This document shows positions 28,166 to 29,333 of a DNA stretch of 44,039 bases, piece after piece (position 1 is the first letter of the stretch; every line of letters begins with the position of its first letter). The stretch lies in the sequence record PQ511147.1. The stretch is one strand, 5' to 3'. The notes beneath the pieces were generated by a model that was not told the DNA's origin, ran no database searches, and saw only the letters and a program-made list of their open reading frames with translations. Origin of the DNA: Escherichia phage NHEP3. A program made the translations under genes and the position numbers.

Positions 28166-28197
28166 GGAAAAGGGGCCATGCTGCCCCTTTTTTTTAG
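28166..28197. terminator. bidirectional rho-independent terminator between the late (+) and early (-) units
   Basis: Stem AGGGGC / GCCCCT with a T8-9 run downstream and an A run upstream. Confidence 0.7.
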
Positions 28198-28769
28198 TTT
28201 GAGTTTTCCCAGTCCATTTTGCGCCGCACCAGCGGGCTTTCGTAGTATTCCTTGCCTTCCACTTCCACCAGGGGCCAGTCGTTCACTATAACGTATGGCT
28301 CCGCGATATCCTCTATCACGCCGTGCGCGCTATGTTGTCCGAAATCTACGCCCACCAGGATAACCCCGGCAACGCGACGAGTGAGATACTCGCGAGCGCA
28401 ACGGGCCTCGACCAGTCCTCGACGTATGCCGCTGGTGGCCTTAACCTCGTAGGTCCAGACGGCATCGATCACATGTTCGCGGAAGTCGGGGCCGGATTTA
28501 ACCTTGCGCTTGCCAACCATGATAATATCGCCGCGGTCGATAGTGTTAGCGCTAAACAGGCCGGTACGCATTAGCAAACCTTGCGGGATACAGCTACGCC
28601 CGCCCGCCTGCCCTTCGAGGTATATGCCTGCAAACATTTCGCCCAGCACACCGACGAGTCTGCTTTGCTTGCACGCGTCGGACTTATACCGCCACTGGTC
28701 AAACTCGATGCTTGCTATCATTGCCGCCAGGTGGAATTGTTTACCAGATATTTCATATTCGCCGTACAT
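28194..28769 (-). CDS. hypothetical protein, possible PD-(D/E)XK-like nuclease fold (191 aa)
   Basis: GAGGA Shine-Dalgarno; a D...E-V-K pattern (GDIIMVG...WTYEVKA) fits a restriction-endonuclease-like core; weak evidence. Confidence 0.4.
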   Translation of the reverse strand: MYGEYEISGKQFHLAAMIASIEFDQWRYKSDACKQSRLVGVLGEMFAGIYLEGQAGGRSCIPQGLLMRTGLFSANTIDRGDIIMVGKRKVKSGPDFREHVIDAVWTYEVKATSGIRRGLVEARCAREYLTRRVAGVILVGVDFGQHSAHGVIEDIAEPYVIVNDWPLVEVEGKEYYESPLVRRKMDWENSN

Positions 28770-28811
28770 CGTGTGGTCCTCGTTGATGCGGGCCGAAGCC
28801 CGCGATTAGAA

Positions 28812-29333
28812 TTATTTAAGTGCGCCAGTCACCAGTGTTTTTTCCATGTTGCGGAAATCTTCCGGCGTCATGTGGATTTTAGATCCATCTTCACCGGTTA
28901 GCACGACCATAGGCTGGACGTCCTGATCTGCGATGCCAAAATTAGCGGCTTTAACCATCTTGCCCACAGATGAAGATGGATGCCACGTACTGGCGGTGTC
29001 GATGGGCCAACCTTTGAGGCTATCGTATTGCGCTGCCGTCGTATCGACCTGAATCTCATCATGAACGGTCATGTAAGACTCGCCCAGCAAGGCCGCATAC
29101 GCTACCAGGTCGACGATGTTATCTTCCTGGTGCTTACGGTGCTGGCGCACCAGCTTCAGGCAGATCAGGAATGTCCAGGCTTCTTGCTCGGTAAGATCGC
29201 GCCCGGTAAGCGCGTTAAACACGGCGGCGATCTGTTTAGCGCTGCGTTCTTCTTTCGCGTTGTCATAGCCGTTTTCTTTCCCGCGCTGTTCCATAGTGGT
29301 GGCGGCGTTTTTGCAGTATTCGTATGCTTTCAT
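28812..29333 (-). CDS. hypothetical protein (173 aa)
   Basis: AAGGA Shine-Dalgarno before the ATG at 29333; own promoter with an inverted TGCAACCAA/TTGGTTGCA pair upstream. Confidence 0.55.
   Translation of the reverse strand: MKAYEYCKNAATTMEQRGKENGYDNAKEERSAKQIAAVFNALTGRDLTEQEAWTFLICLKLVRQHRKHQEDNIVDLVAYAALLGESYMTVHDEIQVDTTAAQYDSLKGWPIDTASTWHPSSSVGKMVKAANFGIADQDVQPMVVLTGEDGSKIHMTPEDFRNMEKTLVTGALK

Follow-up and report, generated by a model that had tools for sequence, protein, structure and literature searches.

A predicted PD-(D/E)XK-fold protein and its DUF6378 neighbour at the end of the Dhillonvirus replication operon

The PD-(D/E)XK superfamily is vast, and among its described members are the minimal nucleases exemplified by the archaeal and viral Hjc-type Holliday junction resolvases and by D212 of SSV1, the homing endonuclease I-Ssp6803I, type II and modification-dependent restriction enzymes such as MspI, HincII, SwaI, DpnI, NhoI and EcoRV, and the small VRR-NUC nucleases (PF08774) found in phage replication modules. 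The phage proteins of family DUF6378 (PF19905), for their part, mostly stand alone at 92-110 amino acids (aa), and in many phages the gene often closes a replication or nucleotide-metabolism module. Here we discuss a locus in Escherichia phage NHEP3 (sequence record PQ511147.1) at which a predicted member of the first group and a member of the second stand side by side. The window, by which we mean the whole 44,039-nucleotide (nt) stretch analysed, is that of a Dhillonvirus, an HK578-like E. coli siphophage, and its minus-strand early operon closes with two open reading frames (ORFs), ORF-B and then ORF-A (Table 1), just as a first-pass annotation made from the sequence alone had described. 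We conclude that ORF-A is the founder of a small, phage-restricted family with the PD-(D/E)XK fold, described as yet by no domain library, and that both ORFs are real, strongly conserved Dhillonvirus core genes. Few E. coli phages are isolated more often than the Dhillonviruses, which have found use in phage-therapy engineering and as probes of bacterial immunity (BASEL phages Bas14-18 and Bas83-85, the SECphi phages and the SM_S22 series). For the domain databases ORF-A adds a small new nuclease family, an incremental addition given that divergent phage members are to be expected in so large a superfamily; the outcome is useful for annotation and will not surprise the specialist.

ORF-A beside the described PD-(D/E)XK nucleases

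The case for ORF-A begins with its predicted structure. An AlphaFold model built from a seven-sequence alignment has a predicted local distance difference test score (pLDDT) of 83 and a predicted template modelling score (pTM) of 0.81, and it runs in order through a helix (residues 34-54), three strands (59-61, 82-88 and 100-112), a second helix (122-130) and a last strand (135-143), a predicted alpha-beta-beta-beta-alpha-beta core that is the fold of the PD-(D/E)XK superfamily. Its top structural matches are nearly all nucleases of this superfamily, including I-Ssp6803I, D212, Hjc and restriction enzymes, the best in a Foldseek comparison with the PDB being the Hjc protein ST1444 (E 7e-3). 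In BFVD, 15 uncharacterised phage proteins matched at E<=1e-3, and a few of the weaker matches are labelled restriction endonuclease, PD(D/E)XK or VRR-NUC.

The second line of evidence comes from the family alignment, in which 17 sequences with identities down to 24% share nine invariant positions: G40, E44, G64, R68, D81, E108, K110, I161 and W165. E44 falls on the first helix of the model, D81 at the start of the second strand and E108-x-K110 on the third, and on sequence grounds these four residues are the canonical PD-(D/E)XK catalytic set, forming a putative active site. The first-pass annotation had proposed a restriction-endonuclease-like fold for this 191-aa protein on the strength of a D...E-V-K pattern. 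The fold is borne out by the model, by the structural matches and by the invariant E...D...ExK set, and the pattern requires one amendment: D102, E108 and K110 are all present, but D102, the aspartate nearest to E-V-K, is not conserved in the family, and the alignment makes D81 rather than D102 the conserved catalytic aspartate. This assignment usefully names residues that can be tested (D81, E108 and K110) in a protein conserved as well as the portal.

Taken with the model, these observations make it very probable that ORF-A adopts the PD-(D/E)XK fold and that its active site is intact, and probable, at a somewhat lower level of confidence, that it is an active nuclease. The chemistry would be that of a catalytically competent, metal-dependent enzyme, with Mg2+ bound by E44, D81 and E108, a water molecule activated by K110, and nucleic acid contacted by the basic loop at 86-100, in which residues 88-100 are a basic, lineage-specific insertion that the model renders with low confidence. 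Inactive PD-(D/E)XK domains are known, and ORF-A might of course have kept the fold while acting as a DNA-binding or scaffold protein whose conserved charged residues serve for binding only. We think this improbable, since the four catalytic positions are invariant across the 17 sequences while most other positions vary, a pattern typical of active enzymes.

How, then, does ORF-A relate to the nucleases that it resembles? In sequence, hardly at all. Single-sequence and profile searches of Pfam, NCBIfam, PADLOC and PDB sequences returned no match, and none of the 17 family members matched Pfam even at E<=10; the sole match is PHROG 10558 (phrog_10558), whose function is listed as unknown. The family itself is small, comprising seven clusters at 90% identity, and an exhaustive profile search of 1.84 billion proteins found only 15 cluster representatives at E<=1e-3. 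The Hjc resolvases and D212 share no significant sequence or profile similarity with ORF-A. In hhalign, four PDB sequences of Hjc and Hje proteins were aligned with it so that GDII/YEVKAT lay against VDLVAG/IEVKV, an alignment short of significance (probability 0.3%, E 0.2), and neither this comparison nor the Pfam scan places ORF-A in the Hjc family. ORF-A belongs to the superfamily without significant similarity to Hjc, and it therefore represents a new family rather than a member of the Hjc family. In architecture, too, it departs from Hjc and D212: residues 3-26 form an extra strand and helix at the N-terminus, strands 2 and 3 are separated by a basic insertion of 12 residues, and the C-terminus is extended by ~45 residues.

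The other comparisons are similarly of kinship with differences. I-Ssp6803I matches ORF-A in structure at only 8% sequence identity, and ORF-A, unlike that homing enzyme, is neither intron-borne nor sporadic but part of the fixed gene core, at a locus that is conserved. The restriction enzymes named above share the superfamily fold and the catalytic motif, and the presence of DNA methyltransferase genes near ORF-A adds to the likeness; ORF-A, however, has no adjoining cognate methyltransferase and no recognisable specificity domain, and is only 191 aa long. The VRR-NUC proteins, like ORF-A, are small nucleases of this superfamily in phage replication modules, but ORF-A does not match PF08774. 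The operon has a VRR-NUC gene of its own, for a protein of 121 aa whose score exceeds the Pfam threshold, and with ORF-A this gives the phage two distinct predicted nucleases of the PD-(D/E)XK fold.

ORF-B and the DUF6378 proteins

The first-pass annotation had left both genes unassigned, a description that still suits ORF-A as far as domain libraries go and that ORF-B has outgrown. Residues 16-85 of ORF-B match the Pfam family DUF6378 with 39.1 bits against a gathering cut-off of 27.1, which makes it a member, and all of its 42 diverse homologues match the same family. Across these homologues the N-terminal domain (residues ~1-90) has the invariant positions R17, D24, E29, R30, K60, R63, D71, D75, Y79, L82 and E85, and the DUF6378 phage proteins share with it the invariant R/D/ER/K..R/D...D/Y/E residues. 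From its composition, this invariant charged set suggests ligand binding or catalysis.

What follows the domain is less usual for the family. Most DUF6378 proteins stand alone, whereas ORF-B adds a linker (~95-135), indel-rich and hypervariable in both length and sequence, and then a conserved C-terminal module of ~38 aa (QPMVVLTGEDGSKIxMTPEDFRNMEKTLV); the lengths of ORF-B proteins accordingly span 130-199 aa, and local duplications occur. The linker varies even among phages that are otherwise ~90% identical, between flanking domains that are strongly conserved, with a block of ~30 aa (SVRLDGEINAYNSAMRV...) in some phages and KTVKAANFG duplicated in tandem in one. A second difference from most DUF6378 members is that ORF-B is fixed beside ORF-A. 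The C-terminal module and the fixed adjacency would both have been gained in the Dhillonvirus clade, and together they suggest a functional link between ORF-B and ORF-A.

Structure prediction, which had been proposed for both genes, served ORF-A well and ORF-B badly: the AlphaFold model of the latter is poor (pLDDT 50), showing at this low confidence four helices. HMMER searches with the ORF-B and DUF6378 profiles found no match in the PDB or in other Pfam families. We regard the DUF6378 domain as a small helical module, probably one that binds ligands or nucleotides or is enzymatic. A relationship of the N-terminal domain to the MazG-like all-alpha nucleoside triphosphate (NTP) pyrophosphohydrolases, four-helix bundles with ExxE...ExxD metal-binding motifs, is offered as a lead only; no ExxE/ExxD pair is conserved across the 42 homologues. 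DUF6378 proteins are often labelled 'phosphofructokinase' (phrog_474, phrog_1167 and some GenBank records), a label for which our searches gave no support. In the public records that we inspected both genes are called 'hypothetical protein', with one exception in which the DUF6378 gene is a 'phosphofructokinase'.

A longer version of ORF-B, 215 aa from a GTG codon, was considered and rejected. It overlaps the neighbouring gene for a HAD-superfamily protein, and its frame is broken by non-triplet indels in relatives; the 173-aa form is therefore the gene.

Conservation, setting and possible roles of the pair

Dhillonvirus genomes, those of HK578-like E. coli siphoviruses, are ~44 kb long, and the 3.1 kb around both genes are 86-94% identical to more than 150 of them, with a DNA match to 158 phage records in all. 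ORF-A is present in ~157 records and ORF-B in 155, compared with 156 that have the portal at an identity of at least 90%, so that ORF-A is conserved at the level of the portal. In the phage collection, ORF-A proteins of Dhillonvirus records are 77-99% identical (133 of ~157 at 95-99%), and homologues at 29-35% identity occur in ~39 Klebsiella siphophages of ~48 kb. Comparison of the window with 13 relatives gave a median ratio of nonsynonymous to synonymous substitution rates (dN/dS) of 0.05 for ORF-A, while in ORF-B the N-terminal domain stood at 0.04 and the C-terminal module at 0.14. Both genes are under strong purifying selection.

Their position is just as stable. ORF-B and ORF-A adjoin in every Dhillonvirus and in the metagenomic relatives L005-L008, where ORF-A identity has fallen to 54-57% (in L008 the two overlap by 4 nt), and the adjacency survives in L037, a relative that lacks the HAD gene. 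In four phage lineages the replication/methyltransferase module ends with ORF-A or a homologue, which is followed by a converging tail fibre or, in the distant lineages, placed directly before the lysis cassette. The first-pass annotation had seen in the operon end a frequent site of accessory cargo, and a strong form of that idea would see in ORF-A a selfish mobile gene, such as one for a free-standing homing endonuclease, with ORF-B unrelated to it. Its distribution essentially excludes this, and we find it scarcely credible: the locus is fixed in essentially all Dhillonvirus genomes and is syntenic in relatives at 54-57% identity, no sporadic presence or absence was seen, dN/dS is very low, and the GC content is like that of the rest of the genome. 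The weaker suggestion of accessory cargo falls on the same evidence of constant locus, synteny and purifying selection.

Our best explanation of the locus, and a tentative one, is composite: ORF-B and ORF-A would form a two-gene transcription unit ending the Dhillonvirus replication/DNA-modification operon, with ORF-A as an endonuclease of DNA metabolism. The role in phage DNA metabolism is, taken by itself, a possibility that we hold slightly more loosely still. We propose it because ORF-A is conserved at portal level, because it keeps its constant last position in the replication/methylase module and because it resembles in structure the minimal dimeric DNA endonucleases (Hjc, D212 and I-Ssp6803I). 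ORF-A might thus process branched or replicating phage DNA, or otherwise cut DNA, during replication and recombination.

Several findings weigh against this explanation. The operon's VRR-NUC gene is a more conventional junction-resolvase candidate, which weakens any reading of ORF-A as 'the resolvase'. In distant lineages the ORF-A homologues have no DUF6378 neighbour, and most DUF6378 genes have no ORF-A neighbour. The promoter candidate for the pair in the window is a consensus match only, at 8 of 12 positions, below the scan's cut-off of 9/12. Literature searches, finally, found no study of either ORF and no biochemical or genetic data on them. As the two families are often apart in other lineages, the pairing is clade-specific rather than an obligate module. 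A 194-aa protein encoded after a DUF6378 gene in another phage lineage gave no significant hhalign match to ORF-A. A confident assignment of both genes to housekeeping replication functions, which would have overturned the first-pass view of them, did not emerge.

The most serious competing idea, though we judge it unlikely, is that ORF-A is a nuclease directed at the host or at its defences, degrading host or competitor DNA or cleaving defence nucleic acid. In the host-directed version the phage's own DNA would be shielded by its Dam, Nmad5 and C5 methyltransferases; in the counter-defence version ORF-A would cut, for example, the multicopy single-stranded DNA (msDNA) of a retron and so act as a defence trigger. 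The neighbourhood lends this some appeal. The same stretch holds two genes of kinds already shown to interact with host defences (PMC11846954, PMC11564622), namely a homologue of Ksap1, which is a 74-aa ORF with Dam on one side and the HAD phosphatase on the other, and a 154-aa coiled-coil ORF that is 75% identical to CDS0035 of phage SM_S22, which probably corresponds to ORF35, the anti-Tmn protein of PMC11846954. Ksap1, a SECphi18 protein, triggers the K. pneumoniae defence protein Avs2 (KpAvs2) and is dispensable for the phage (PMC11564622). In addition, Retron-Eco7 is triggered by a functionally uncharacterised gene of another Dhillonvirus, and in T5 by a nuclease (PMC12640716); many of the structural neighbours of ORF-A are restriction enzymes; and every lineage seen has methyltransferases, of Dam type and others, at 0.7-2.5 kb upstream of it, never adjoining it and with unrelated genes between.

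On the other side, ORF-A is conserved as the portal is, unlike the variable and dispensable Ksap1 and anti-Tmn genes, and neither of the two ORFs, nor the HAD protein or the Ksap1 homologue, matched a PADLOC-DB family at E<=1. ApeA and retron Eco2 both respond when a phage breaks down host DNA; Dhillonviruses are reported to resist the former, and most of them escape restriction by the latter, which is weak evidence against massive degradation of the host chromosome. That chromosome is in any case already Dam-methylated in E. coli, and a Dam mark could not separate phage from host. Methyltransferases are, moreover, common in phage replication modules anyway.

One further reading joins the two genes in a nuclease module of two components, found only in Dhillonvirus-like phages, that would act on the nucleic acids of host immunity. 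We consider it improbable; on this view the linker and C-terminal module of ORF-B would regulate or target the nuclease, and ORF-A might, for example, be the Dhillonvirus trigger of Retron-Eco7 through cleavage of msDNA. If it were true, the region at 28.2-31.0 kb (anti-Tmn, Dam, Ksap1, HAD, DUF6378 and nuclease genes) would be a conserved host-interaction island within a replication operon.

RNA is the other conceivable substrate. As an RNA-acting PD-(D/E)XK enzyme, ORF-A might cleave host or phage mRNA, process 5' ends, or repair RNA together with the upstream HAD protein, which would act as a Pnkp-phosphatase-like partner. This is a small likelihood only: DNA enzymes match ORF-A equally well or better, L037 keeps the ORF-B/ORF-A pair without having a HAD gene, and no RNA ligase or kinase domain was found in the gene block or in a Pharokka-type annotation of SM_S22, the gene labelled 'DNA ligase' being the anti-Tmn homologue. 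A nuclease acting on phage DNA remains the reading that we tentatively prefer.

Control elements and neighbouring genes

The operon that these genes close occupies the minus strand from ~40.6 kb down to 28.2 kb and encodes an exonuclease, a Gp2.5-like protein (SSB) that binds single-stranded DNA, a DNA polymerase, the VRR-NUC protein, an SNF2 helicase, a C5 methyltransferase, an HNH-like protein, Dam and several small proteins. It converges on the plus-strand structural block, whose last gene is that of the lateral tail fibre. The features of the locus are collected in Table 1.

Table 1. Genes and sequence elements at and around the ORF-B/ORF-A locus, with the 9-mer sites of the whole window
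Feature	Position in window	Strand	Remarks
ORF-A	28194-28769	minus	191 aa; ATG, GAGGA 8 nt upstream
ORF-B	28812-29333	minus	173 aa; ATG, AAGGA upstream
ORF-B linker	28920-29050	minus	hypervariable
ORF-B, rejected longer version	start at 29459	minus	215 aa; GTG
Bidirectional intrinsic terminator	28166-28193		canonical; common to ORF-A (minus) and tail-fibre gene (plus)
Intercistronic hairpin GCGGGC-UUCG-GCCCGC	28788-28803	minus	between ORF-B and ORF-A; no U-tract
5'-untranslated region hairpin GGGGGC-AAUACC-GCCCCC	29352-29369	minus	just upstream of ORF-B ribosome-binding site
Sigma-70-like promoter candidate for ORF-B/ORF-A	29379-29408	minus	consensus match
Candidate -35, TTGCAA	29408-29403	minus	18-nt spacer to -10
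Candidate -10, TATCTT	29384-29379	minus	TATAGT in most relatives
Inverted 9-mer pair TGCAACCAA-N4-TTGGTTGCA	29386-29407		perfect 9-bp repeat within promoter spacer; 9-mer copies at 29386/29399
Second inverted repeat GTTGCAA-N7-TTGCAAC	29402-29422		overlaps first; inside HAD gene 3' end
9-mer pair	10236/10250		upstream of nmad5-side gene
9-mer pair	31058/31075		direct orientation; upstream of anti-Tmn homologue
9-mer pair	37636/37652		one mismatch; upstream of SSB gene
9-mer pair	43385/43420		one mismatch
9-mer copy	26345		tail-fibre start codon region; may be coincidental
9-mer pair	43792/43823
Further 9-mer copies	428, 40571
Lateral tail-fibre gene	26344-28161	plus	ends structural block
HAD-superfamily phosphatase	29396-29866	minus	156 aa; DLDGV motif; phrog_415
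Ksap1 homologue	29863-30087	minus	74 aa
Anti-Tmn homologue	30540-31004	minus	154 aa; coiled coil
VRR-NUC protein	34002-34367	minus	121 aa

The first-pass annotation had given the 173-aa gene its own promoter with an inverted operator pair. The promoter-like element and the pair are both there as sequence, and we infer that this internal sigma-70-like promoter drives or boosts the ORF-B/ORF-A unit, its spacer carrying the inverted pair of a regulatory motif that occurs genus-wide. Where 0.32 exact copies of the 9-mer TGCAACCAA (reverse complement TTGGTTGCA) would be expected in the window, there are 11. Most of them come in pairs, 13-35 bp apart, in intergenic positions that resemble promoters, and TAT(A)TTGGTTGCA is a frequent form; homologous places in SM_S22 carry equivalent pairs. 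It looks like the putative binding site of a regulator or a genus-specific promoter element. Only at the ORF-B site is the arrangement inverted within the window. The whole element is nearly invariant in 16 relatives, where nearby third-codon positions vary, and the stop codon of the HAD gene lies inside the loop of the pair.

The inverted pair could also form an RNA hairpin of 9 bp. In L019, however, the second arm is a direct copy of TGCAACCAA rather than an inverted one, and a protein-binding site at the DNA level is therefore favoured over the hairpin. The overlapping GTTGCAA-N7-TTGCAAC repeat, with one match against 0.22 expected, is weak on its own.

Transcription of the pair would stop at the bidirectional terminator that it has in common with the tail-fibre gene. 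The idea that the genes are flanked by terminators stands on that 3' side, where the terminator is canonical, and does not on the other: the hairpins upstream of ORF-B lack a U-tract, for which reason the upstream hairpin was rejected as a canonical terminator. Between ORF-B and ORF-A no terminator was found. The hairpin that lies there has an intact stem in 16 of 17 sequences, with a single-base mismatch in L021, and an Rfam scan of the hairpins gave nothing above threshold. At two palindromes the loop is exactly reverse-complemented in one relative while the stem is kept, from TAGG to CCTA in L017 at the inverted 9-mer pair and from TTCG to CGAA in L003 at the intercistronic hairpin, sequence changes that read as the signature of inversion at a palindrome.

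Among the neighbours, the HAD protein is labelled 'polynucleotide kinase' in some records and has no kinase domain; a similar gene co-occurs with ORF-A homologues in the distant lineage L009. The Ksap1 homologue has R instead of K at position 30 and retains L39, L47, T50 and F60. Several GenBank records call the anti-Tmn homologue a 'DNA ligase', apparently in error. In the tail-fibre protein a long run of imperfect repeats (TQTDQIKTDTQAIKDQTNQIK...) is predicted to form a coiled coil. A Phage_tail_C_2 domain (E 1e-58) is found C-terminally, and it is in the C-terminal part of the protein that relatives differ.

A few public records stood out (MG065648.1, OQ221563.1 and MH706966.1). The host labels of the records for 'Campylobacter phage A144' and 'Acinetobacter phage NJ01', ~90% identical to the window over the 3.1 kb, look doubtful. 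In the lambdoid phage mEp021 a 37-aa fragment of the ORF-A C-terminus, 86.5% identical, lies at the end of the record, and is possibly a recombination scar beside tail-fibre genes.

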